DNA of 64,000 nt from an uncultured Dialister sp. (GTDB lineage Bacteria > Bacillota > Negativicutes > Veillonellales > Dialisteraceae). This document shows positions 9,336 to 63,878 of this stretch, one piece after another. The notes under the pieces are model-generated. The model saw only the letters and a list, made by a program, of their open reading frames with translations. It was not told the DNA's origin and made no database searches. Made by a program: the position numbers and the translations under genes. Position 1 is the stretch's first letter; each line of letters starts with the position of its first letter. The stretch is from positions 9,817 to 73,816 of the forward strand of contig CAKPQG010000007.1 of NCBI GenBank assembly GCA_934178345.1. The letters run 5' to 3'.

Positions 9336-9712
9336 AAAAGGGTTCAGGGTTAGCTCATGGGACGTGCCGTCCCTTGGTTGTTTGCGAAAAAGGGAGAGCG
9401 GGTTCTATAGGTTCAGAGGGTTCAACGGGGGCGGTGCGGCGCATAAAAATAATGAAGCGCCGCGGAGTTTTGATAGCGCTTCGCGCCGTCGTCATTTCGA
9501 GCGTAGCCGAGAAATCTCTATGGCAGAGCGCTCATTGCCTGATGTGAGACAGCACCAAGACATCGTTTCCCCTCAGTGCATACACGCTGATTTCCGCAGT
9601 GCAGTAGAGATCGAGGGCTACGCTCGGGATGACGATGCCGGAGAATCCCAGTCACCAGTCACTAGTCACCAGTCACTAGTCACTCCTAATCCCCAAACCC
9701 AAAAGCGAATTA
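9336..9712. repeat. mosaic intergenic repeat cluster containing one copy of the palindromic CGTCATTTCGAGCG module
   Basis: GGTTCAGGGTTAG, GGTGCGGCGCATAAAAAT, GCGCCGCGGAG, the CGTCATTTCGAGCGTAGCCGAG...CTCGGGATGACGATG module, and (CAGTCACY)4. Confidence 0.85.
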
Positions 9713-12829: not shown

Positions 12830-13470
12830 CTTTTGGTATAATGGGGTAGGGTTCAGGGGTAGCCCGTGGGGCGTGCTGCCCTTTGATTGGGGATGAAAGC
12901 TTTGCTCGAATGAGGAATTAGGAATGAGGAATTAGGAATGGTGGTGCGGCGCATAAAAATCAGAAGCGCCGCGGAGTTGTGATAGCGCTTCGCGCGCATC
13001 GTCATTTCGAGCGTAGCCGAGGGTCTTTATTGCAGAACGTTCATCGCCTGATATGAGGCAACACCAGGACATCGTTTTCCCTCGGCGCATACACGCTGAT
13101 TCCCGCAATGCACTAAAGATCCCTCGGCTGCGCTCGGGATGACGATGCCGGAGAATCCCAGTCACGCCTAATCCCCAATCCCTAATCCCTAGCCACTCAT
13201 CCCTGTTTTCAAACTTAGCCTCTGGGCGTGCCGCCCTTTGATTACGTGCGAAAGAGGTTCAGTGGGGGAGCAGGTTCGGAGGGTAGGGCGGGGATGGTGC
13301 GGCGCATAAAAACATAGAAGCGCCGCGGAGTATAGATGGTGGCGATGCCCGAAGGCGGTATTCAAGTCACCAGTCACTAGTCACTAGTCGCTCGAGGCTC
13401 CTAATCCCTAGCTACTAATTTTTAGTCACCAGTCACTCACCCCTGATTTCTAGGACTACCCCCCAAAAAA
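12830..13470. repeat. mosaic intergenic repeat cluster with a palindromic CGTCATTTCGAGCG module copy
   Basis: GGGTTCAGGGG, (AGGAATT)n, GGTGGTGCGGCGCATAAAAAT, GCGCCGCGGAG, the 210-bp module, and TAGGGAT/CAGTCAC heptads. Confidence 0.85.
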
Positions 13471-15285: not shown

Positions 15286-15333
15286 GGGAAACGCTGATTA
15301 AATCTGACTTTGCAATTGAATCAGCGTTTCCAT
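15286..15333. mobile_element. short-form MITE-like element (TIR pair only)
   Basis: GGGAAACGCTGATTAAATC and GATTGAATCAGCGTTTCC inverted repeats separated by about 10 nt. The same termini occur on the 167-bp copies. Confidence 0.6.
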
Positions 15334-15839: not shown

Positions 15840-15877
15840 AAAGTGATGCTACTTGCGGGCGGCATCACTTTTTTGGT
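15840..15877 (+). terminator. intrinsic terminator
   Basis: AGTGATGC-tacttgcgggcg-GCATCACT followed by TTTTTT. Confidence 0.7.
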
Positions 15878-15879
15878 GA

Positions 15880-16395
15880 CTAAGTGGCTAGTGGCTGGTG
15901 ACTAGTGACTGGTGACTGGTGACTTGTGACTGGTAGCTAGGGATTAGTGGCTAGGGATTAGGATTGCGATATGAGAAAACCGCTAGTTTCAAACCTCCGC
16001 GGCGCTTCCATATTTTTATGCGCCGCACCACCCCCGTTGAACCTTCTGAACCTGTTGAACCCGCTCCCCCTCTTTTGCAAACAATCAAGGAACGAGCCGC
16101 CCACGGGCTAACCCTGAACCCTGAAGTTTGAAAGCAGGGATGAGTAGCTAGGGATTAGGGATTGGGGATTAGGAGTGACTAGTGACTGGTGACTAGTGAC
16201 TTGAATACCGCCTTCGGGCATCGCCCTATTTATACTCTGCGGCGAAGCCGCCACCTTCATTCCTCATTCCTAATTCCTAATTTATGCGAAGCTTTCATCC
16301 CCAATCAAAGGGCGGCACGCCCCCGAGGCTAACCCTGAACCCTGAACCCTGAACCCTGAACCCTGAACCCTAAATAACCTTGTCAAGCAAAACCC
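15880..16395. repeat. mosaic intergenic repeat cluster with about 1.5 copies of the roughly 255-bp composite unit
   Basis: Heptad blocks, GCGGCGCTTCCATATTTTTATGCGCCGCACCACC, (GAACCTNTT)n, CAAAGGGCGGCACGCCC, and (CCCTGAA)5 at 16329-16372. Confidence 0.85.
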
Positions 16396-16782: not shown

Positions 16783-18153
16783 ATGCCATTTGAAAATTTA
16801 GGAGACAAGCTGCAGTCTGCATTCAAAGATCTCCGAGGGAAAGGCAAACTTTCCGAAAGTGACATTGATGGGGCGCTTCGTGAGGTCCGCCGCGCACTGT
16901 TGGAAGCCGATGTCAATTTCAAGGTGGCGAAAGATTTCATCGCTCACGTCCGTGAAAAGGCGATGGGGGAAGAAGTCTTCGGCAGCCTGAAGCCTGACCA
17001 GACAGTCATCAAGATCGTCAAAGACGAGCTGACGGAGCTTCTGGGCGGGACACAGAGCAAGATCTCGCTGTCTTCTTCCGGCATGACGATCATCATGCTG
17101 GTCGGTCTGCAGGGCGCCGGCAAGACGACGACTGCCGGCAAGCTGGCTCTGATGTTCAAGAAAAAAGGCCACCGCCCGATGATGGCAGCCTGCGACGTCT
17201 ATCGTCCGGCAGCGATCAAGCAGCTCGAAGTCTTGGGCGAGCAGACTGACGTCCCGGTCTACCGCATGCCGCCGAATGTGGATCCGGTCCACATCGCGCA
17301 GTACGCGATCGATACGGCCAAGGCATACAATCGTGATGTCGTCATCCTCGATACTGCAGGCCGGCTCACCATTGATGAAAAGCTGATGGCCGAGCTTCGC
17401 AACATCAAAGCGGAGGTTCATCCGCATGAGATTCTCCTCGTCCTTGACTCCATGACGGGTCAGGACGCAGTCAATACCGCCAAAGCCTTTGATGAAAATC
17501 TGGGCATCGACGGCACCATCCTGACGAAGATGGATGGCGACGCCAGAGGCGGTGCAGCGCTCTCTATCAAGACCGTCACCGGCAAGCCGATCAAGATGAT
17601 CGGTGTGTCCGAAAAACTCGACGGCGGCCTTGAGGATTTCTATCCGGACCGCATGGCCGGACGTATCCTCGACCTGGGCGACCTCGCTACGCTGATTGAG
17701 ACAGCCCAGAGAAATATGGATGAAGAATCCATGAAAGACGCAGCGGCGAAGGTGCGTAAAGGGGAATTTACCCTTGACGATTTCCTGAACCAGCTGAAAC
17801 AGGTGAGAAAGCTGGGGTCCTTCCAGAACATCCTCGGGATGCTTCCAGGGATGGGCAAATTCAAAGACCAGCTGAAGGACATCGACCTTGATGGCAAAGA
17901 AGTGAAGCACATCGAAGCCATCATCCTCTCCATGACTCCGCAAGAGCGTGCGAATGTGAAGATCCTGAACGGCAGCCGCCGCAAGCGTATCGCGCAGGGC
18001 GCCGGTGTCAAGATTCAGGATGTCAACCGCATGATGAAGCAGTTCGCTGATATGCAGAAGACCATGAAGAAAATGAAGGGTATGAACCCGAAAAAGTTAA
18101 ATCCATCCAAACTGGGCGGCCTTGGCGGTCTCTCAGGGATGTTCCGTAAATAA
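16783..18153 (+). CDS. ffh: signal recognition particle protein Ffh
   Basis: N and G domains (GLQGAGKTTT, DTAGR), a Met-rich M domain, and a basic C-terminus. Confidence 0.92.
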   Translation: MPFENLGDKLQSAFKDLRGKGKLSESDIDGALREVRRALLEADVNFKVAKDFIAHVREKAMGEEVFGSLKPDQTVIKIVKDELTELLGGTQSKISLSSSGMTIIMLVGLQGAGKTTTAGKLALMFKKKGHRPMMAACDVYRPAAIKQLEVLGEQTDVPVYRMPPNVDPVHIAQYAIDTAKAYNRDVVILDTAGRLTIDEKLMAELRNIKAEVHPHEILLVLDSMTGQDAVNTAKAFDENLGIDGTILTKMDGDARGGAALSIKTVTGKPIKMIGVSEKLDGGLEDFYPDRMAGRILDLGDLATLIETAQRNMDEESMKDAAAKVRKGEFTLDDFLNQLKQVRKLGSFQNILGMLPGMGKFKDQLKDIDLDGKEVKHIEAIILSMTPQERANVKILNGSRRKRIAQGAGVKIQDVNRMMKQFADMQKTMKKMKGMNPKKLNPSKLGGLGGLSGMFRK

Positions 18154-21714: not shown

Positions 21715-22255
21715 TTTGCGCGGAATCCATGGAACCTGTTATCTCTTATAGTTTGAAGGCAGGGACTAGTGGCCAGGGGTTAGGAGTGACTAGTGACTGG
21801 TGACTGGTATTGCGGTTTCTCAATAACTGGCATTTAAGTCTACTTCCGAATCAAGTGAGGAGTGAGGAATGAAGGTACGGTGCATAAAAATCAGTAGCGC
21901 CGCGGAATTTTGATAGCGCTTCGCGTCGTCGTCATCTCGAGCGTAGCCGAGAGATCTCTATGGCAGTACGGGAATCAGCATGTATGCGCCATTTCATCAA
22001 CGACGTTTTTGTTCTGCATCTTTCTTTTATCTCGCACTGACTTCTTACCGTTGTGCAAGAAAGATCGAGGGCTTCGGTCGGAATGACGATACGAGAGTCC
22101 CGTTCATCTAAAATTTACGGCGCTTTCCTATTTTTATGCGCCGCACCACCACTCCTCACTCCTCACTAGATAGCATGAGGCTTTCAAGCGCCATCAAGGG
22201 ACAGCACGTCCCACGGATATCCCCCCACCCGGCTTGTGGGGGGCTTTTTTTATTG
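21715..22255. repeat. mosaic intergenic repeat cluster, variant using (GAGGAGT)n heptads, with a divergent copy of the palindromic module and a terminal GC hairpin plus T-run
   Basis: GCGCCGCGGAATTTTGATAGCGCTTCGCG; a GTCGTCATCTCGAGCGTAGCCGAGAGATC module; TTTTATGCGCCGCACCACCACTCCTCACTCC; CCCCCCACCCGGCTTGTGGGGGGCTTTTTTT. Confidence 0.8.
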
Positions 22256-28915: not shown

Positions 28916-29082
28916 TTAGGGAAACACTGATTAAATCGTTGTCTGATTTCATTCTGGGATTTTTATACAGAGCAAGGAATCATCTGACGCGAATAGCGAG
29001 CTATTTAAGGAAGATGATGACGAAGCTATGTATAAAAATCCATATGAAATCCGGCTCTGCTATTTAATCAGCGTTTCCCTTA
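28916..29082. mobile_element. 167-bp MITE-like element (long form)
   Basis: Terminal inverted repeats TAGGGAAACACTGATTAAATCG and CTATTTAATCAGCGTTTCCCTTA. The interior is itself palindromic (GGATTTTTATACA...TGTATAAAAATCC). Near-identical inverted copy at 60969-61135. Confidence 0.8.
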
Positions 29083-30590: not shown

Positions 30591-30673
30591 GTGCGAGCGA
30601 AGGGACTCGAACCCCCATGCACAAGGCGCAGGATCCTAAATCCTGTGCGTCTACCAATTCCGCCACGCTCGCA
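30589..30673 (-). tRNA. tRNA-Leu (anticodon TAG)
   Basis: Reverse complement gives GCGAGCGTGGCGGAATTGGTAGACGCACAGGATTTAGGATCCTGCGCCTTGTGCATGGGGGTTCGAGTCCCTTCGCTCGCACCA. Features: 7-bp acceptor stem, D-loop, anticodon loop tTTAGga, long variable arm, GTTCGAGTC T-loop, encoded CCA. Confidence 0.88.
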
Positions 30674-31969: not shown

Positions 31970-32011
31970 CAGGGAAACACAGATTCTGCGATTGAATCAG
32001 CGTTTCCCTGG
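31970..32011. mobile_element. short-form MITE-like element (TIR pair), followed by a T-run
   Basis: CAGGGAAACACAGATT...GATTGAATCAGCGTTTCCCTG then TTTTTTTT. Confidence 0.55.
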
Positions 32012-35499: not shown

Positions 35500-35955
35500 A
35501 GAAAGGGGAACATGGTATAATGAGCAATATATACTTTGCAGCGACGCTGCCGCTACAAGTTTGAAAGCAGGGATGAGTGGCTAGGGATTAGGAGTGACTA
35601 GTGACTGGTGACTAGTGACTAGGAAATTCCCGTATCGTCATTTCGAGCGCAGTCGAGGGATCTTTACTGCACTGCGGGAATCAGCGTGTATGCGCCGAGG
35701 GAAAATGATGCCCTGGTGCTGCCTCACATCAGACGATGAACGTTCTGCAATAAAGACCCTCGGCTACGCCCCTCTGACGACGGCGCGAAGTGCTATCAAA
35801 ATTCTGCGGCGCTTCCATATTTTTATGCGCCGCACCACCATTTCGCATTTCTCATTTCTAATTTCTCATTCAAGCGAGTCTTTCACCCACAATCAAAATG
35901 GCAGCACGCCCCACGGACTAACCCAGAACCCTGAACCCGACAGCCTTTAAATTTA
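35500..35955. repeat. mosaic intergenic repeat cluster with an inverted copy of the palindromic module
   Basis: AAGTTTGAAAGCAGGGATGAGTGGCTAGGGATTAGGAGTGACTAGTGACTGGTGAC; reverse-orientation CGTCATTTCGAGCGCAGTCGAGGGATCTTTACTGCA module; TTTTTATGCGCCGCACCACC. Confidence 0.85.
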
Positions 35956-45593: not shown

Positions 45594-46349
45594 ATGCTTC
45601 ACCGGTTTCGTAAAGAAAAAGGAGCGAAAGGCCAGAACATGGTCGAGTACGCGCTGATACTTGCGATCGTCGTCGGTATCGGCTGGGGGATCTACGATCA
45701 GGTCGGTCTTAGTGGTTCCATCAAAGGGGTTTTCTCAGATGCGGGAAGTCTTCTGGAGGATGCGTCCAAGGCGGAAAAGGCAGCTTTTGATATCAAGCCG
45801 TCTATCGACAAGCTGAAGTCGCTCTACAACAAGTATAACCGTGGTGATGGAAACATGAATGCTGGAGACCAGAATACCAAACGTGGCATCCTGATGGATT
45901 TCTGGCTGGATGATACAGATAAGAAAGATGCAGACATCGCCAAGCTCACCTCTGAGCTGGGGGCGAAGCAGTGGACCTATTATCATGGCGAAGGACCGAA
46001 GTATCCGAATTCCATCAGCAGTGATTCCGTGGGACTTTACTGGAGCACGGAGAATTTATCGAAGGCGTCGCTGACAGAGTCGCCTGATAATTACAGCAAG
46101 GAGTCCGTGCTCTCTTACTACTATAATGGCAGCAACTACTATGTCATGAAGAATCGTGTGTGGATGGATCAGAAGCAGTATAATAATAACGGACAACCGG
46201 GGCTGGCGTCCAAGGGAAATGAGTATGGCAAGCCACCGGCAGAAATTGTCGGAAATGCGAGTGGCTACCGTACTTATGCAGAAGCTCAGCAGGCATTCAA
46301 GGATGCCGTTTCTGACAATGGCGGAAGCTTTATTTTCCAAAATCAATGA
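45594..46349 (+). CDS. Flp-type leader fusion protein, paralogue 2
   Basis: N-terminus ...KGAKG/QNMVEYALILAIVVGIG. About 40% identical to paralogue 1 through the C-terminal domain (shared W..DD.DKKD..I.KL.SELGA, GLYW.TE.L, KE.VLSY.Y motifs). AAGGAGG RBS. Terminator hairpins at 46370-46402 and 46470-46510. Confidence 0.7.
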   Translation: MLHRFRKEKGAKGQNMVEYALILAIVVGIGWGIYDQVGLSGSIKGVFSDAGSLLEDASKAEKAAFDIKPSIDKLKSLYNKYNRGDGNMNAGDQNTKRGILMDFWLDDTDKKDADIAKLTSELGAKQWTYYHGEGPKYPNSISSDSVGLYWSTENLSKASLTESPDNYSKESVLSYYYNGSNYYVMKNRVWMDQKQYNNNGQPGLASKGNEYGKPPAEIVGNASGYRTYAEAQQAFKDAVSDNGGSFIFQNQ

Positions 46350-46523
46350 TGAGTCAGTCAGGCATCATAAAAGCCGCCGAAGTGTTTCGGCGGCTTGCTT
46401 TCTGCAGGAGATTGTCGTACAATAACCATAGGAAAGGCGCTATCCGGAAACGGCTTCCGCCCTTGTTGAAAAGAACAGAGAAACCGCCAACGTTGGACCG
46501 TGAGGCGGTTTTTCTGTTGTGGG

Positions 46524-46592
46524 TTAGTACTTAGCTACGATCATGCAAAGAAGCAAGAGCAGCAGAAAGGCGAAGAAATCGTATTTCGTCAT
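46524..46592 (-). CDS. 22-aa hydrophobic small protein (MTKYDFFAFLLLLLLCMIVAKY)
   Basis: Strong GGAAGGGGGGTGG RBS 4-7 nt before the ATG. Extended -10 (TGcTATAAT) about 55 nt upstream on the minus strand. Single predicted TM helix. Confidence 0.45.
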   Translation of the reverse strand: MTKYDFFAFLLLLLLCMIVAKY

Positions 46593-46849
46593 ACTACCAC
46601 CCCCCTTCCGGAAAGGATGGGGCAGGCAAACCGCTACCGTGTCACATGATAGCGCCTTTAAATATTATAGCATACGCGCAGCCGGCATGTCTTGAAATCC
46701 AAACTGTTCAGTATAGTGAACAAATTTCCAAAAACGGAAAAAGTTTTCACTATACTGAATAGTTTTTTGATTTTTGGAAAACTTTTCAGTAGGAGTGAGG
46801 AGTGTCGGTCTTGTGCCTGAAATGTCATCTGAAGCCATTGAATCCATCC

Positions 46850-47110
46850 ATCTGAAGTTTGAAAGCAGGGATGATTAGTAGCCAGGGATTAGTGGCTAGG
46901 GATTAGGAGCCTCGAGCGACTGGTGACTAGTGACTTAAATACCGCCTTCGGGCATCGCCACCATCTATACTCCGCGGCGCTTCTATTTTTTTATGCGCCG
47001 CACCACCCCCTTTTAAACCCTCTGAACCTAAAGAACCCGCTGAACCTCTTTCGCACGCAATCAATGGGTGAAGCCGCCCCAAGGGCTAACCCTAAAACCT
47101 GAACCCATCA
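46850..47110. repeat. mosaic intergenic repeat cluster
   Basis: AAGTTTGAAAGCAGGGATGATTAGTAGCCAGGGATTAG, GCGGCGCTTCTATTTTTTTATGCGCCGCACCACC, (GAACCNNNN)n, and GGCTAACCCTAAAACCTGAACCC. Confidence 0.85.
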
Positions 47111-47263
47111 ACCTGAACCTTCACCTCATTTACATTCTATTTACAATCTAAACTCAAACCGTACACCATTCTCTCTTTCCTTTTTACATCCATCCCTTAG
47201 ACTACAAATATCAACGCAAGAGAAAACAAAAAATAAAAGGTATGTCTCTAAGGAGGACACAAA

Positions 47264-48145
47264 ATGAAACTCAAAAAAATGATGGCACTGGCACTGGCTT
47301 CTACCGCTTTGATCGCAGCAGCAGGCTGCGGTGGAAACAGCCAGCCGGCAAAGAGCGGTGCTGCTTCCGGCGCGAAGGTCACAGGACAGGTCACTTCTTC
47401 CGGTTCTTCCGCACTGCTTCCGCTGGTAAAGGATGCGGCTGCTAAGTTCAAGAGCAAGAATCCGGAAGTATCCCTGACACTGAATGCAGGCGGCTCCGGC
47501 ACAGGCTTGAAGCAGGTCGCTGAAGGCTCTGTCAACATCGGCAATTCCGATGTACCGGCTGAAAAGAAGCTGCCGGCTGAAAAAGCCAAAGGCCTCGTAG
47601 ACCATAAGGTCTGCACCATGACTGTTGCTACCATCATCAATAAAGATATCGCTGACAAAGTGAAGAGCCTGACCGCCCAGCAGCTGCAGGATGTCTTCAC
47701 TGCCAAAGTCACGAACTGGAAAGAGGTAGGCGGCCCGGATGAACCGATCGTCCTCGTCACCCGTCCGACCACCTCCGGCACCCGCGCTCTCTTCACGGAA
47801 TTGGCTCTCGCTGGTCAGGAAGAAGCATCCAACAAATCTCTGGAAACTGACGACAGCGGTACGCTGATCCAGAGCGTAGCACAGACCAAGGGTGCTATCG
47901 GCTATGTCGCTCTTCCGTACCTCGTCAACAACAAAGACGTAGCGGCTCTTGCCATCGACGGCGTGGCACCGACGCTGGAAAATACCTATAACGGCAAGTA
48001 CAAAGTCTGGGGATATGAACACATGTACACCAAGGGCGAACCGACCGGTGCCGTCAAAGCGTTCCTGGACTATATCCTCTCTGATGAATATGGCGTAGAG
48101 ATCGAAAAGCAGGGCTACGGCGTTTCCTCTAAGATGAAGAAATAA
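47264..48145 (+). CDS. pstS: phosphate ABC transporter substrate-binding lipoprotein
   Basis: Lipobox LIAAAGCGG; PstS-family motifs (SSGSSALLP, GSGTG); AAGGAGG RBS. Confidence 0.88.
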   Translation: MKLKKMMALALASTALIAAAGCGGNSQPAKSGAASGAKVTGQVTSSGSSALLPLVKDAAAKFKSKNPEVSLTLNAGGSGTGLKQVAEGSVNIGNSDVPAEKKLPAEKAKGLVDHKVCTMTVATIINKDIADKVKSLTAQQLQDVFTAKVTNWKEVGGPDEPIVLVTRPTTSGTRALFTELALAGQEEASNKSLETDDSGTLIQSVAQTKGAIGYVALPYLVNNKDVAALAIDGVAPTLENTYNGKYKVWGYEHMYTKGEPTGAVKAFLDYILSDEYGVEIEKQGYGVSSKMKK

Positions 48146-52419: not shown

Positions 52420-52730
52420 GGGAGGCTTGGGGTTAGCCCAAGGGGCGGGGCGCCCATGGATTGCGGATGAAAGCCTCTCTCGAATGAGAAATGAGAAATG
52501 CGAAATGGTGGTGCGGCGCATAAAAATCAGAAGCGCCTCGGAGGTTTGAAATTAGCGATTTTCTCGTATCGCAAACCTAATCCCTAGCCACTAGTCACTA
52601 GCCACTAGCCACTAGCCACTAGTCACTAGTTACTAGTCACTAGTCACCAGTCACCAGTCACTCAAGGCCACTCATCCCTAATCCCAGATTTAGAACCTAT
52701 TACCTATGGGGGCATGCATAGGCGGCCATG
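52420..52730. repeat. mosaic intergenic repeat cluster with a roughly 10-copy (CACTAGY) heptamer tract
   Basis: Heptamer tract at 52588-52662; GGTGGTGCGGCGCATAAAAAT and GCGCCTCGGAG boxes. Confidence 0.85.
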
Positions 52731-58043: not shown

Positions 58044-58110
58044 AATCCCTGGGGAAACGCTGATTCAGTCGCAGAGGCAGATTTTACAAGAACTTTTATA
58101 CATGATTTCG
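58044..58110. mobile_element. truncated copy (5' half) of the 167-bp MITE-like element
   Basis: GGGGAAACGCTGATTCAGTCGCAGAGGCAGATTTTACAAGAACTTTTATACATGATTTCGTCAT aligns to the left half of copy 60969-61135, then diverges. Confidence 0.5.
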
Positions 58111-58217
58111 TCATGCCCTTTCTTGAATAGCTCGATACGACTTGTACCCCAAGCCCCGCCCATTTGCGCCTTTATGATATAATCGAAAGTGGAAACGTAT
58201 AGAAAGGGAGAAACGAA

Positions 58218-59389: not shown

Positions 59390-60700
59390 ATGGACTCTTT
59401 ATTCGACATGTCCCCGGAGGCGGGGAAGCGGTATGCCCCCTTGGCGGATCGCATGCGCCCCAGGCGGCTTGAAGACATCGTCGGACAGGACGGTGCCGTT
59501 GGACGGCAGTCATTCCTTTATCGCATGATAGAGCGGGATACGATCCCATCTCTTCTTCTTTTTGGCCCGCCAGGATGCGGGAAGACGACGATCGCATCGG
59601 TCATTGCAGAAATGACGAAGAGCTGTTTCGTCAAGGTGAATGCGACCTCGAGCGGGATCAAAGAAATCCGGGATGTGGTTTCCAAGGCGAAAGAGGAGCT
59701 TTCGTATTACCAGCGGCGGACGATCGTTTTCATCGATGAAATCCACCGGTTCAATAAGGGGCAGCAGGATGTGCTTCTGCCTTATGTGGAGGATGGGACA
59801 TTCATCCTCATCGGTGCGACGACGGAGAATCCTTATTTTGAAATCAATGGGCCGCTGCTCTCCCGTCTGCGGCTGATCCATCTGAAGCGACTTACTGATG
59901 AAGCGATCATCTCGGTGCTTCATCGCGCGCTCGATGATGAAAAGAATGGACTGGCCATTCATCGCTATACGGCAAAACCAGAGGCACTCTCTCTCATTGC
60001 TGCCTATGCCTCCGGGGATACGCGCGTCGCGCTGAATCTCTTGGAACAGTCGACATCCATGCTGAGGGATGGAGGCTCTCTGACAGAAAAGGAAATCGGC
60101 GAGGTGGCAGGTGTTCAGATCTCCAGCTATGATAAGCAGGGGGACTATCATTACAATATCGTCTCTGCCTTCATCAAGAGCATGCGAGGGAGTGATCCTG
60201 ATGCAGCGCTGCACTATCTGGCGCGCATGATCGATGGAGGGGAGAAGACGTCTTTCATTTCACGCCGCATCATGATTTGTGCGGCGGAAGATGTAGGCCT
60301 TGCGGATCCGCGAGCGCTGCAGGTGGCGGTATCAGCGGCGCAGGCGGCGGAAATGGTCGGCTTTCCTGAGTCGCAGATCATCCTTGCGGAAGCCGTGCTC
60401 TATATTTGCCTCGCGCCGAAGAGCAACAGCGCCTGCTCTGGCATTTTTGCCGCCGAAGGGGAGGAAAAGACAAGAAAGGACTGGTCCATCCCCGCGCACC
60501 TCATGGACTCGCACTACAGCGGAGCGAAGAAAATGGGGCTTGGCATCGGATATAAGTATCCTCACGATTTCGGTGGATGGGTAGAGCAGCAGTATCTTCC
60601 TGATGAGCTCGTAGGACACCAGTACTACAAGCCCCGCCCGCTCGGGCAGGAAGGCGACATGGTGCGCGCCTGGTGGGCGAGAAGAAAGGGAAGTAAGTGA
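59390..60700 (+). CDS. rarA: replication-associated recombination protein A (RarA/MgsA AAA+ ATPase)
   Basis: GPPGCGKTT Walker A, FIDEIHRFNK Walker B/sensor, MgsA C-terminal domain. Confidence 0.88.
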   Translation: MDSLFDMSPEAGKRYAPLADRMRPRRLEDIVGQDGAVGRQSFLYRMIERDTIPSLLLFGPPGCGKTTIASVIAEMTKSCFVKVNATSSGIKEIRDVVSKAKEELSYYQRRTIVFIDEIHRFNKGQQDVLLPYVEDGTFILIGATTENPYFEINGPLLSRLRLIHLKRLTDEAIISVLHRALDDEKNGLAIHRYTAKPEALSLIAAYASGDTRVALNLLEQSTSMLRDGGSLTEKEIGEVAGVQISSYDKQGDYHYNIVSAFIKSMRGSDPDAALHYLARMIDGGEKTSFISRRIMICAAEDVGLADPRALQVAVSAAQAAEMVGFPESQIILAEAVLYICLAPKSNSACSGIFAAEGEEKTRKDWSIPAHLMDSHYSGAKKMGLGIGYKYPHDFGGWVEQQYLPDELVGHQYYKPRPLGQEGDMVRAWWARRKGSK

Positions 60701-60704
60701 CTGG

Positions 60705-60968
60705 TGACTGGAATGCCAACTCATGGCACCACCATTTCGCATTTCTCATTTCTCATGCAATCGAGGCTTTCAAACGTAATCAAGGGGCGAGCCGCCCCAC
60801 GGACTAAGTTTGAAAGCAGGGACGAGTAGCTAGGGATTAGGGATTGGGGATTAGGAGTGACTGGTGGCTGGTGACTGGGATTTCTCCGGCATCGTCATCC
60901 CGAGCGCAGCCGAGGATCTTTACTGCACTGCGGGAATCAGTGTGTATGCGCCGAGGGAAAAAGATGTC
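60705..60968. repeat. mosaic repeat cluster (left part) containing a palindromic-module copy that is interrupted by a MITE
   Basis: GGTGGTGCCATGA, heptads, CATCGTCATCCCGAGCGCAGCCGAGGATCTTTACTGCACTGCGGGAATCAGTGTGTATGCGCCGAGGGAAAAAGATGTCC up to the MITE insertion point. Confidence 0.8.
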
Positions 60969-61135
60969 CTAGGGAAACGCTGATTAAATCGCAGAGTCGA
61001 ATTTCATATGGATTTTTATACATAGCTTCGTCATCATCTTCCTTAAATAGCTCGCTATTCGCGTCAGATGATTCCTTGCTCTGTATAAAAATCCAAGAAT
61101 GAAATCTGACAACGATTTAATCAGTGTTTCCCTAG
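60969..61135. mobile_element. 167-bp MITE-like element, inverted relative to copy 28916-29082, nested inside a palindromic-module repeat
   Basis: TIRs CTAGGGAAACGCTGATTAAATCG and CGATTTAATCAGTGTTTCCCTAG. The interior is about 95% identical to the reverse complement of the 28916-29082 copy. Flanking sequence continues the interrupted module. Confidence 0.85.
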
Positions 61136-61370
61136 TGCTGCCTCCCATCAGGCGATGACCGTTCTGCAATAAAGACCCTCGGCTACGCTCGAAATGACGA
61201 TGCGCCGCGCGAAGCGCTATCAAAATTCCGCGGCGCTTCTGATTTTTATGCGCCGCACCTTCATTCCTAATTCCTCATTCCTAATTCCTCATTCAAGCAG
61301 AGCTTTCATATACAATCAAGGGACAGCACGTCCCCGGGGCTAACCCTGCACCTGCACCTAATAAAGGAGA
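61136..61370. repeat. mosaic repeat cluster (right part, continuation of the interrupted module)
   Basis: TGCTGCCTCCCATCAGGCGATGACCGTTCTGCAATAAAGACCCTCGGCTACGCTCGAAATGACGATG; GCGCCGCGCGAAGCGCTATCAAAATTCCGCGGCGCTTCTGATTTTTATGCGCCGCACC; (TTCCTAA)n. Confidence 0.8.
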
Positions 61371-61385
61371 CATAACCATTTATCC

Positions 61386-63878
61386 ATGAAAAAGAAGACA
61401 GCAAGCCGGAGACGGACGACGAGAGTGACAAAGAGCGGGGAGAAGAGCTATGAGATCACAGGTGTGATTCTCTTCCTCTTCGGCCTTTTCATTCTCTTTA
61501 GTCTTTTTAGCGACAGTACCGGTTTTTTCGGAGATATTACGAATAAAGGTAGCCATTTCCTCTTCGGATTCGGCGCGCCTTTCTGCGCCCTTTTGATGAT
61601 GTTTTTCGGTGGGCGCTATGCCGTGACATCGAAAGGAATTTCCTGGGACAGGCGCGTTGCGCTGGTCATCCTGCTGGTGCTGCTCCTCTTCATGGCGGTG
61701 CATCATTTTCTGGTCCCTTTTGGAAGAGAAATGGATATCCAGTCGATCCTCACCTATGGCGGGATCGTCGGGGCGGGATTCTGCGTCTTTTTCCATGACG
61801 CGATGGGATACTGGGGGACGACGCTGGTGCTCCTCGGGGCCATCGTGATCGATGTGCTTCTGCTGACGCACTGGTCACTCTCCAAGGGCGCGCAGAAAGT
61901 GGGCTCGAAGGCGCAGGTGCTCGGAAAGAAAACAGGCGAGAAGATCGAAGCCGCAGCCATGCGGCTCAGGGAAAAGAAAGCGGCGCTGGATGCTGCCAGA
62001 AGTGCTGCTCGGCTGGAAGTACTTGATGATAAGCCGACGGAGTTCATTTACAAGAAGAATGAAGAAAATGCGGTAGAACTGATGGAAGAGGAGCCTCCGG
62101 CAGAAGATATGGCGGTCCCTGCGCAGATGCCGGATGCGGAAGAGCCACCGATTTCCGTAGAAGAGCCTATCGAAGAAATCCCTCCGGAAGCGGACGAAGA
62201 AGCGCAGGAAGAGCCGCTGATGCCGGAGGAGCCGGTCGAAGAGATCGAAGAACCACCGATGCCACCGCTACCGGAAACGGAGGAGGAAGCGGCAGAAGAA
62301 CCACTGGAAGAACCGGTAGAAGAGATGCCCGGGGAAGAGAAGCCGGAGGAGGACATTCATCCGATACCGGTAGCGCCCGTCTCAGCAGACCCGGCGCATC
62401 CGGCACCTGCGGCTGAAGAAGGGCCGGTGTACCAGTTTCCTCCGCTGTCGCTTCTTCATGCGGGAACAAATGCAGGGCAGGGAGAGGCCGATGCAGGACA
62501 GAAGGCGGCGCTCATCGAGTCGACGCTTGCCAGCTTCGGGGTCCGGGCGAAGGTCGTTCACTACAGCGTGGGGCCGACGGTGACGCGTTTCGAACTCAAG
62601 CCGGAAATGGGCGTCCGCGTGAGCAAGATCGAAGGGCTTTCGAATGAGCTCGCCATGGCTCTTGAGGCGACACATATCCGCATCGAAGCCCCGATCCCGG
62701 GGAAATCTGCGGTCGGCATCGAGATCCCGAATACGAAGGCGGCGTCTGTGCCGCTTCATGATGTGCTTGCCAGCGATGCCTTTCAGCATGGCAAGGGCCA
62801 TATCCTTGTGGCTCTGGGGAAGGGCATCACCGGGAAGACCGTTGTGACCGATCTGGCGAAGGCGCCGCATCTTCTGATCGCAGGCTCGACCGGCAGCGGC
62901 AAGAGCGTGTGCATCAATTCCATCATCACGAGCATCATTTACCATAGCCGCCCTGACGAAGTGAAGCTCATGCTCATCGATCCAAAGGTGGTCGAGCTCT
63001 CTGTCTATAACGGCATCCCGCATCTGCGCACGGAAGTCGTGACCGATATGAAGAAGGCGCAGGGGACGCTGAATTGGGCTGTCCGTGAAATGGAAGCCCG
63101 TTACCAGCTCTTTGCCGGGGCGAAGGTGCGAAATATCGAAGGGTATAATAAGATGTACCCTGATAAAAAGATGCCCTATATTTTACTGATCGTCGATGAA
63201 TTTGCCGACCTCATGAATGTCGCGGCCAAAGAAGTCGAAGTCCTGATCCAGCGTCTGACGCAGAAGGCGCGTGCCGCCGGCATCCATCTGATCCTTGCGA
63301 CACAGAGACCGTCAGCCGATGTCATCACCGGCGTCATCAAATCCAACATTCCGAGCCGTATCGCCTTCATGGTCGAGTCGGGGCTCAATTCCCGCATCAT
63401 TCTCGATGAGGGAGGGGCAGAATCTCTGCTCGGCAAGGGCGATATGCTCTTCAAGCAGGCAGGAGCGCTCAGTACTGTCCGTATTCAGGGGGCGTTCATC
63501 TCGGACGAAGAGGTCGAGGATGTGGTGAACTATGTCAGGGCAGAGTGCATCCGTCAGGAAAGCCATGTCGTCTATGAGCCGATCGATCTTTCTATCCCGG
63601 AAAAAACAGAGAAAGAGGAGGAAATGGTCGAAGAGCAGGATGATCTCATGCCGGAGGCTTCGGAATGGGTGCTCGATACGAAGCGCGCTTCTGTCTCCGC
63701 TCTACAGCGCCGATTCCGCATCGGTTATACCCGGGCCGGCCGTCTCATGGATACCATGGAACGCCTCGGCATCGTCGGCCCCGCAGAAGGGGCAAAGCCA
63801 AGAGATATTCTGGTCAATAAGGAGCAGCTGGCCGGTATTTTGGCTGGTGGAAAGAATGAGGAGAATGGTGACGAGTGA
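61386..63878 (+). CDS. ftsK: DNA translocase FtsK/SpoIIIE
   Basis: N-terminal 4-TM domain, Pro/Glu-rich linker, motor domain (GSTGSGKS Walker A), C-terminal gamma winged-helix domain. Confidence 0.9.
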   Translation: MKKKTASRRRTTRVTKSGEKSYEITGVILFLFGLFILFSLFSDSTGFFGDITNKGSHFLFGFGAPFCALLMMFFGGRYAVTSKGISWDRRVALVILLVLLLFMAVHHFLVPFGREMDIQSILTYGGIVGAGFCVFFHDAMGYWGTTLVLLGAIVIDVLLLTHWSLSKGAQKVGSKAQVLGKKTGEKIEAAAMRLREKKAALDAARSAARLEVLDDKPTEFIYKKNEENAVELMEEEPPAEDMAVPAQMPDAEEPPISVEEPIEEIPPEADEEAQEEPLMPEEPVEEIEEPPMPPLPETEEEAAEEPLEEPVEEMPGEEKPEEDIHPIPVAPVSADPAHPAPAAEEGPVYQFPPLSLLHAGTNAGQGEADAGQKAALIESTLASFGVRAKVVHYSVGPTVTRFELKPEMGVRVSKIEGLSNELAMALEATHIRIEAPIPGKSAVGIEIPNTKAASVPLHDVLASDAFQHGKGHILVALGKGITGKTVVTDLAKAPHLLIAGSTGSGKSVCINSIITSIIYHSRPDEVKLMLIDPKVVELSVYNGIPHLRTEVVTDMKKAQGTLNWAVREMEARYQLFAGAKVRNIEGYNKMYPDKKMPYILLIVDEFADLMNVAAKEVEVLIQRLTQKARAAGIHLILATQRPSADVITGVIKSNIPSRIAFMVESGLNSRIILDEGGAESLLGKGDMLFKQAGALSTVRIQGAFISDEEVEDVVNYVRAECIRQESHVVYEPIDLSIPEKTEKEEEMVEEQDDLMPEASEWVLDTKRASVSALQRRFRIGYTRAGRLMDTMERLGIVGPAEGAKPRDILVNKEQLAGILAGGKNEENGDE

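Follow-up and report, generated by a model that had tools for sequence, protein, structure and literature searches.

A probable IS5-type miniature element nested at a CTAG site in a palindromic intergenic repeat of a gut Dialister

[quoted passage not shown] The insertion into this palindromic repeat is real and lies far beyond chance. We consider it most probable (roughly 0.88) that the insert is an IS5-type MITE of 159 bp, that it took a CTAG in the palindromic intergenic repeat as its target with a transposase supplied in trans by a partner insertion sequence (IS), and that the filled allele was imported into this genome by recombination. The parts of the spacer are as follows, L numbers here and below being the loci with which the window was compared.

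60701-61385, unstranded: the rarA-ftsK spacer in full, in which heptamer arrays, short hairpin modules, the CGTCAT palindrome and the nested MITE form a mosaic
60889-60968, unstranded: host CGTCAT module, left part (arm 60889-60938 and the central region up to the target), recognised by its inverted repeat, its paralogues and the orthologues in L002, L004 and L010
60969-60972, unstranded: target-site duplication, left copy CTAG; orthologous empty sites have one CTAG and filled sites two
60973-61131, plus strand: MITE proper, 159 bp, GGAAAC...GTTTCC, with terminal inverted repeats at 60973-60991 and 61113-61131 and a near full-length hairpin
61132-61135, unstranded: target-site duplication, right copy CTAG, from the comparison of empty and filled sites and the 4-bp model across copies
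61136-61203, unstranded: host module, right part (right arm 61154-61203), recognised by its inverted repeat, paralogues and orthologues

The nested insert and its orthologous empty site

This arrangement had been noticed in a preliminary description as a 167-bp MITE copy interrupting a palindromic CGTCAT module of about 210 bp. The sequences quoted there are correct: the left flank ...GGGAAAAAGATGTCC ends at 60969, the right flank restarts with GTGCTGCCTCCCATCAGGCGATGA at 61135, and the copy at 35635-35790 reads through as ...GGGAAAATGATGCCCTGGTGCTGCC... without interruption. The sizes needed revision. The span 60969-61135 does measure 167 bp, but the element proper accounts for 159 bp and the remainder consists of the two 4-bp copies of CTAG; similarly, the host module is palindromic and of the CGTCAT type, but the palindrome proper, judged from its inverted-repeat arms, is 152 bp long without the insert.

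That the flanks belong to one continuous module is seen in a four-way alignment, in which both are colinear with three uninterrupted copies (35560-35930 and, as reverse complements, 12850-13213 and 9430-9693); this colinearity reaches over a composite of about 370 bp, well beyond the 152-bp palindrome. In a BLAST comparison of the composite 35560-35930 with the window, the matches at 60809-60970 (83%, E 1e-42) and 61130-61352 (81%, E 2e-53) both directly adjoin the insert. The insert itself is bounded by a 23-nt inverted repeat (60969-60991 and 61113-61135, CTAGGGAAACGCTGATTAAATCG and CGATTTAATCAGTGTTTCCCTAG, 96% complementary), which in turn lies within a wider inverted repeat whose 50-nt arms occupy 60889-60938 and 61154-61203. 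The terminal-repeat pattern is matched seven times in the window, where 100 shuffles give an expectation of 0.00. The arms of the host module are 80% complementary, and its full palindrome copies are 87-95% identical. The uninterrupted paralogues, delimited by alignment, are these.

35632-35785, plus strand: host-module paralogue with CTGG at the target position
12997-13149, minus strand: host-module paralogue, 95% identical to the orthologous module of L002
9489-9639, minus strand: host-module paralogue, 87%

The same locus was then compared among related genomes. An exact-protein look-up with RarA (GTG start) gave no match, and the exact sequence of ribosomal protein L20 (55916-56266) served as the query in its place, yielding ten syntenic loci, which together with the window make 11 genomes. 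The loci come from human-gut metagenome assemblies and from two NCBI assemblies, one of which is Dialister sp. i34-0019-2H8; the genus is a member of Veillonellaceae, class Negativicutes. The gene order at the locus is infC-rpmI-rplT-mazG-hup-(MGDG synthase)-rarA-ftsK, and the rarA-ftsK spacer varies in length from 202 to 763 bp. The alignments of L002 (99.3% identical to the window), L004 and L010 run to 60972 and restart at 61131 with overlapping locus coordinates, and the allele of these genomes reads ...GAAAACGATGTCCTAGTGCTGCCTCAC..., an intact module with a single CTAG, while L001 and L009 have the insert at the identical position and in the identical orientation with 1-2 substitutions. 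Among the genomes carrying the module, the site is filled in three (the window, L001 and L009) and empty in three (L002, L004 and L010).

The rarA-ftsK spacers are a true orthologous pair of empty and filled sites. Looking at the locus in related genomes, as the preliminary description had proposed, bore out its view that a MITE copy lies inside another repeat module, a view that rests both on colinearity with the paralogues and on the empty orthologous spacer. Its direct comparison of empty and filled sites within one genome holds only as far as colinearity goes: the uninterrupted copies are paralogues that read CTGG, not CTAG, at the target; they cannot stand for real empty sites, and used alone they would give a false idea of the duplication.

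The same spacer has a second site for the MITE family, GGCTAA/CCC, just upstream of ftsK, where L006 and L005 carry an independent insertion.

L006 15492-15650: full copy of the MITE family in the rarA-ftsK spacer, at the GGCTAA/CCC site
L005 about 17600-17740: partial copy of the MITE family in the rarA-ftsK spacer, at the same second site

The spacer of L008 has a diverged MITE-like element (about 17960-18100), and L003 and L007 have a short rarA-ftsK spacer without any CGTCAT module.

Target rule and the IS5 assignment

The terminal inverted repeats of the element are 19 bp long (60973-60991 and 61113-61131) with one mismatch, and by size and coding test the 159 bp have no coding capacity of their own. 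The sole overlapping open reading frame (ORF; 60984-61223, minus strand, 79 aa, TTG start) leaves the element and extends into the host module, and thus cannot be a property of the element.

How long is the duplicated target? When a single genome of each species was scanned for GGGAAACRCTGATTMAAT, at least 116 stretches came up, a figure that gives no copy numbers; many of the matches are chance 18-mers, and many others consist of two inverted motifs separated by 40-290 bp, both in Dialister and in other taxa. The 4-mers just outside GGAAAC...GTTTCC were compared in 68 non-redundant pairs among the matches listed. Exact 4-bp direct repeats occur in 27 of the 68 pairs, whereas permutation gives a mean of 9.9 and a maximum of 21 in 10,000. 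The commonest flanking targets in this set are CTAG, TTAG, CTAA and TTAA, that is, YTAR, and the left-flank 4-mers include CTAG 21 times, TTAG 11 times and TTAA and CTAA five times each. Thirteen of the exact duplications are non-palindromic (TTAG six times, CTAA twice, and CTAT, CTTA, GTAG, CTTG and CAAG once each). A second orthologous pair agrees: an insertion in L001 (390-548) is flanked by TTAC and TTAG, while the window (46530-46533), L002, L004, L009 and L010 have one TTAG at this place. IS5 duplicates 4 bp at YTAR (PMC5009759), and the 4-bp YTAR duplications taken together with this known target place the element at 60973-61131 and the two CTAG copies at 60969-60972 and 61132-61135.

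Candidates for the autonomous partner that would supply the transposase are full-length elements with the same ends as the MITE. Two full-length ISs can be described, the second of which was reached via the subterminal sequence of a Dialister contig end.

L111 2563-3774, 1212 bp: full-length IS in a Lachnospiraceae metagenome-assembled genome (MAG), with a GTAG duplication and a 335-aa transposase
L131 953-2210, 1258 bp: full-length IS from a gut metagenome, with a CTAG duplication and a transposase 72% identical to that of L111

The L111 transposase matches NF033581 (IS5 family) with 303.8 bits against a cut-off of 140, as well as Pfam DDE_Tnp_1 and DUF772; that of L131 is about 50% identical to ISPre1- and ISXfu1-type IS5-like transposases, and the right terminal repeat of L131 matches that of the MITE at 17 of 17 bases. 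A contig of Dialister sp. UMGS370 begins inside such an element, its 105 bp being 99% identical to the end of L131. In metagenome contigs, 26 of the 29 matches to the UMGS370 subterminal sequence lie within 50 bp of a locus end, and for 20 of the 26 this end is a true contig end, which is what a multicopy IS should give; one of the matching contigs, L143, is 99.8-100% identical to the UMGS370 contig. In addition, an L131-type IS end and MITE copies stand together on contigs L134, L145 and L153. In three other genomes, two of Cupriavidus and one of Desulfovibrio, IS5-family transposases are neighbours of the motif. From such sequence matches we infer that the MITE would be mobilised in trans by the transposase of an IS of about 1.2 kb. 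At its start, L005 has an IS4-like DDE_Tnp_1 gene, which was dismissed as a partner, being without matching ends. Searching for homologues of the L111 transposase brought up thousands of IS5 proteins with no means of singling out those of Dialister.

Several points weigh against the IS5 reading of this insertion. At this locus alone the duplication can be read as anything from 0 to 5 bp (CCTAG stands at both junctions, and the ends are G...C), so that the 4-bp call rests on other copies; and 41 of the 68 copies have no exact duplication, including the other full copy in the window (TTAG/CTTA). No transposase of this type occurs in the 64-kb window or in the about 25 Dialister genome chunks examined. 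The MITE and the full-length ISs have only their 17-19-bp terminal repeats in common and no subterminal sequence, an origin of the MITE by internal deletion of the IS being conjectural at most, and the assignment of the IS to Dialister depends on a MAG.

These data also bear on two other accounts of the insert. A MITE of the IS630/Tc1-mariner type, like pneumococcal RUP, would insert at TA, preferably within CTAG, and duplicate TA only, which would make the element 161 bp long (GGGAAAC...GTTTCCC). This was the model adopted first: it fits the present locus equally well (...TCC-TA-GTG... against ...TCC-TA-[GGGAAAC...GTTTCCC]-TA-GTG...), and most copies have TA on both flanks. It was dropped after many copies had been tabulated, as the bases outside TA covary between left and right, which a 2-bp duplication does not predict, and the 13 non-palindromic 4-bp duplications could not arise if TA alone were duplicated and the ends were fixed. 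Four bp are also what the orthologous TTAG empty site indicates, and every full-length element found with these ends encodes a transposase of the IS5 family, not of IS630, so that we now hold the TA model to be very improbable. Even less credit can be given to the view that there was no insertion, the long form being ancestral and the uninterrupted modules products of deletion or of assembly collapse. Short-read assembly can collapse palindromes, and nothing more specific favours this view; against it, the insert is cleanly missing from three paralogous modules and three orthologous alleles, which have just a single CTAG or CTGG, both the filled and the empty state are seen in more than one independent assembly, and the 159-bp unit is found alone elsewhere, in unrelated contexts, with its own terminal repeats and duplications. 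These independent dispersed copies refute it. The account that we retain as most probable is insertion of an IS5-type MITE with a 4-bp YTAR duplication.

In distant phyla, too, this terminal repeat of about 17 bp stands at both ends of short elements (45-290 bp) whose interiors are unrelated, and many of these elements have exact 4-bp YTAR duplications. Carriers include Chthoniobacterales, Gallionella, Betaproteobacteria, Methylophilaceae and Verrucomicrobiota (L023, L027, L039, L068, L072, L084, L087, L119, L121 and others), and further Treponema, Desulfovibrio and Oscillospiraceae. It seems that an IS5 clade with this terminal repeat has repeatedly given rise to MITE families.

Copies, mobility and hairpin structure

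The window contains two full and three partial copies of the MITE. Those other than the nested one are listed here, with the empty site of the insertion found only in L001.

28920-29078, minus strand: second full-length copy, 97% identical to 60973-61131, with imperfect flanks TTAG/CTTA
15287-15331, unstranded: 45-bp mini derivative, two terminal repeats nearly back to back, from the pattern search
31973-32007, unstranded: 35-bp mini derivative, from the pattern search
58053-58137, plus strand: left-half remnant; L001 and L002 have its terminal repeat in the same position
46530-46533, unstranded: empty site with a single TTAG for the MITE insertion at L001 390-548, from the orthologue comparison

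Comparable mini forms of 43-46 bp occur in L057, L073, L080, L107 and L125. About 80 bp separate the remnant at 58053-58137 from the MGDG-synthase-like gene (58218), which lies downstream of it. Across Dialister-type contigs there are 31 non-redundant full-length copies, and copies at non-orthologous sites are 95-99% identical, both within and between Dialister genomes. Together with this CTAG, the L001 TTAG and the GGCTAA/CCC site of L006 and L005 make at least three independent insertion polymorphisms of the family among the 11 genomes.

Copies are also found in bins labelled Lachnospiraceae. Those of the 'Fusicatenibacter saccharivorans' bin H07641-L1 (L086, L107, L125 and L036) are 96-99% identical to those of the window, and some of them have CGTCAT-module flanks as well; those of the 'Agathobacter' bin H07689-L1 (L014, L032, L059 and L115) are only about 75% identical to the window's. 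The copies in these bins are probably mis-binned Dialister DNA rather than products of horizontal transfer.

Did the window copy arise by transposition in this clone? Of 38 mismatches between the window and L002 over 5.6 kb, 35 cluster in 60040-61438, and the window agrees with the filled L001 at 17; in 300-bp windows on either side of this tract the two genomes are 99.7-100% identical.

60040-61438, unstranded: recombination tract against L002, about 1.4 kb, covering the rarA 3' end and the whole spacer and spanning the MITE site, delimited by mismatch clustering

The pattern suggests that the filled allele was probably gained by homologous recombination of this tract and not by transposition in the clone. 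Such an exchange means that the copy documents an insertion in the history of the species rather than activity in this clone. In the course of events that we propose, a 159-bp non-autonomous IS5-family element would have inserted at CTAG in the central non-arm region of the 152-bp palindrome in a gut Dialister lineage. The target is that of an IS5-type DDE transposase: the insertion lies at a YTAR site and its 4-bp target is duplicated, CTAG now being present on both sides. The transposase would have come in trans from an IS of about 1.2 kb with identical terminal repeats, the MITE encoding nothing. The insertion is polymorphic in the population, as the filled and empty alleles attest, and the window copy would most probably have been brought in with the tract of about 1.4 kb from a strain already filled, the outcome being a hairpin within a hairpin.

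This nested structure is predicted from folding. The empty module would form a DNA hairpin (-41.1 kcal/mol, z -6.1) with CTAG in its central non-arm region, the MITE alone a near full-length RNA hairpin (-65.7 kcal/mol, z -13), and the filled module a hairpin within a hairpin of 315 nt (-83 kcal/mol, z -13). Across 22 non-orthologous copies, pairing is kept in 96.1% of cells. Double-sided changes that keep the pairing occur at 19 of the 54 pairs, as against 8.7 in shuffles (none of 500 as high) and 2-8 with a slid structure, and these compensatory changes include internal helices, beyond the terminal repeats. Nineteen of the 22 copies retain, on one strand only, a G-U pair at position 7 of the terminal repeat. 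Rfam 15 at the gathering threshold has no match in the region, its sole match in the window being a tRNA (30592-30672), and a promoter and terminator scan of the rarA-ftsK spacer found no consensus.

Two further readings concern what the family has been doing since. It may be a fossil, the insertion being old and presence or absence arising only from recombination of alleles or from rare precise deletion of the hairpin. The difference between the window and L002 indeed falls within the recombination tract, the window has the filled allele in common with L001 and L009, these genomes being about 97% identical overall, whereas the site is empty in the closest relative, no transposase is found in the window or in the Dialister chunks examined, duplications have decayed or copies are truncated in many cases, and a 159-bp hairpin between CCTAG repeats would be a plausible substrate for slippage deletion. 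The close identity of non-orthologous copies, the at least three independent insertion polymorphisms and the presence of a multicopy full-length IS with identical terminal repeats, both in a Dialister genome and on MITE-carrying contigs, speak against a fossil, which we regard as rather unlikely though deserving of attention. Mobility of the MITE family is supported at the level of the population, and the suggestion in the preliminary description that the family is or recently was mobile is sustained to that extent by the orthologous polymorphisms and the 95-99% identical copies, but not as current activity in this genome. The hairpin, on the other hand, could have been selected, as RNA or as single-stranded DNA; the element would then be more than a selfish one, and the nested copy would have a regulatory or an RNA-stabilising role in the interval from rarA to ftsK. 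This would agree with the compensatory changes and the kept pairing, internal helices included, with the one-strand G-U pair and with the stability of the filled module. But most of the double changes split just two subfamilies, so that the independent events are few; arm-to-arm correction or regeneration of the palindrome could imitate selection; Rfam match and promoter or terminator consensus are missing; and the strains free of the insert are common, which makes it dispensable. Selection of the hairpin is thus doubtful. More doubtful still is an extension in which, besides a selected hairpin, the CTAG-rich heptamer arrays and the palindromic modules between Dialister genes might act as landing pads steering YTAR-targeting IS5-type elements away from genes, nested hairpins being co-opted and modulating ftsK.

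The repeat setting and known systems

What is established is a MITE nested in a dispersed palindromic repeat; nesting of a transposon in a transposon is not. In copies of the CGTCAT module no consistent flanking duplication was seen that would mark the module itself as a MITE. No clean empty site was found for the copy at 12997-13149, every orthologous locus recovered carrying the module, and where strains do not have the module between rarA and ftsK, their spacer is of another build and offers no clean empty site. Full copies of the host module were too few for a covariation test. Beside the CGTCAT palindrome, the mosaic is built of heptamer arrays, a GCGCGAAGCGC...GCGGCGCTTC hairpin and TTTGAAAGC hairpins, and it recurs in varying combinations in at least 20 intergenic regions of the window.

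Why did the MITE land inside a repeat? CTAG is depleted in the window, with 84 sites observed against 247 expected from base composition, and, going by an approximate gene map, the roughly 20% of the sequence that is non-coding contains 71 of these 84 (5.56 per kb against 0.25 per kb in coding DNA, about 22-fold). Most of the sites are within heptamer arrays and repeat modules. TTAG, CTAA and TTAA have the same non-coding bias in weaker form. The lineage that received the MITE had CTAG at the centre of the module, where the paralogues have CTGG. The best explanation for an insertion in a repeat is that targets are available there, CTAG being scarce in coding DNA and abundant mainly in the intergenic repeat blocks. 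The further proposal that repeats are hotspots for insertion is only partly supported: this concentration of CTAG in repeat blocks favours it, but only 8-10 of the 31 non-redundant Dialister copies adjoin other repeat modules, several next to a CGTCAT arm, in a plain count.

IS5-type MITEs with CTAG duplications are already documented, and biologically the insertion is nothing unusual. The nearest known counterpart of the element is MITEPsy1 of Pseudomonas syringae pv. phaseolicola, which is 100 nt long, has 18-nt terminal repeats starting with GGAAG and was trapped while transposing; it makes a 4-nt duplication at CTAG or YTAA and has been proposed to derive from the IS5-family ISPsy2 (PMC3189936). 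The two elements are alike in being non-coding, in their repeats of about 18 nt starting with GGAAG or GGAAA, in the 4-nt CTAG/YTAA duplication and in a link to an IS5-family IS through the terminal repeats only. MITEPsy1, however, is gammaproteobacterial, is 100 nt long and has been seen to transpose, whereas the Dialister element is 159 bp long, its mobility being read from population polymorphism alone; it has a near-perfect hairpin with compensatory changes, and its sequence is unrelated to that of MITEPsy1 beyond GGAA. IS5 of Escherichia coli and the IS5 group (ISPre1, ISXfu1) have YTAR and the 4-bp duplication in common with the window element, and the partner transposases match NF033581, but members of this group encode a transposase and the window element has no transposase gene. 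Its terminal repeats (GGAAACGCTGATTAAATCG) also differ from what we take to be the ends of IS5.

A link to IS5-family elements by terminal repeats only is also found in type II MITEs, namely, BrickBuilt, MITE293 and MITE700 of Porphyromonas gingivalis and ATR of Neisseria, and the matching ISPg elements of P. gingivalis are reported to be often nested into other mobile elements (PMC4596501). These MITEs differ from the present one in sequence and in duplications that are variable or absent, and BrickBuilt has a minisatellite. In form, the Dialister element also recalls systems with other transposases, from which it differs in its 4-bp YTAR duplication and IS5-type partner. The Correia elements of Neisseria and RUP of Streptococcus pneumoniae are small palindromic intergenic elements with long hairpins that are polymorphic among strains; they duplicate TA and belong with other transposase families. 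The searchable literature gave nothing relevant either on the terminal-repeat sequence or on any MITE of Dialister.

The locus offers a clean, resolved nesting of a mobile element in a repeat, in a common but little-studied genus of the human gut, with the natural empty allele at hand. It yields exact element ends, a target rule (YTAR, 4 bp) and a candidate partner IS, and the presence/absence alleles could be used as markers for typing Dialister strains. It also carries two lessons of method: paralogous 'empty sites' gave a wrong target (CTGG), and where near-clonal genomes differed in having the insert or not, the difference was explained by a recombination tract and not by a transposition event.

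Heptamer arrays of up to 11 tandem copies lie at 52584-52662, 15876-15954, 16331-16371, 41000-47, 6961-92 and 61261-94 and at about 20 more places, with the units CTAGTCA, GTGACTA, AACCCTG, GGTTCAG, GAATGAG, ATTCCTA and others, and with the hairpin modules they form mosaics repeated across the window. They resemble the heptameric short tandem repeats of cyanobacteria and are unexpected in a Negativicute. At 21880-22140, a CGTCAT palindrome stands between inverted GCGCGAAGCGC...ATTTTTATGCG modules to give a larger palindrome of about 260 bp, so that the modules evidently combine in different ways. In L158 (1-2500), a pstS-like gene adjoins a YfbR-like gene, while the two are 34 kb apart in the window (45594-48145 and 13519); this junction is either a rearrangement or a chimeric assembly through common repeat modules. 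Finally, a gene for a CHASE-domain hybrid histidine kinase of about 690 aa lies between hup and the MGDG-synthase gene in L003 (12593-14677), L005, L007, L008 and L010 and is missing there in the window, L001, L002, L004, L006 and L009, which is a gene-content polymorphism in a repeat-rich spacer.

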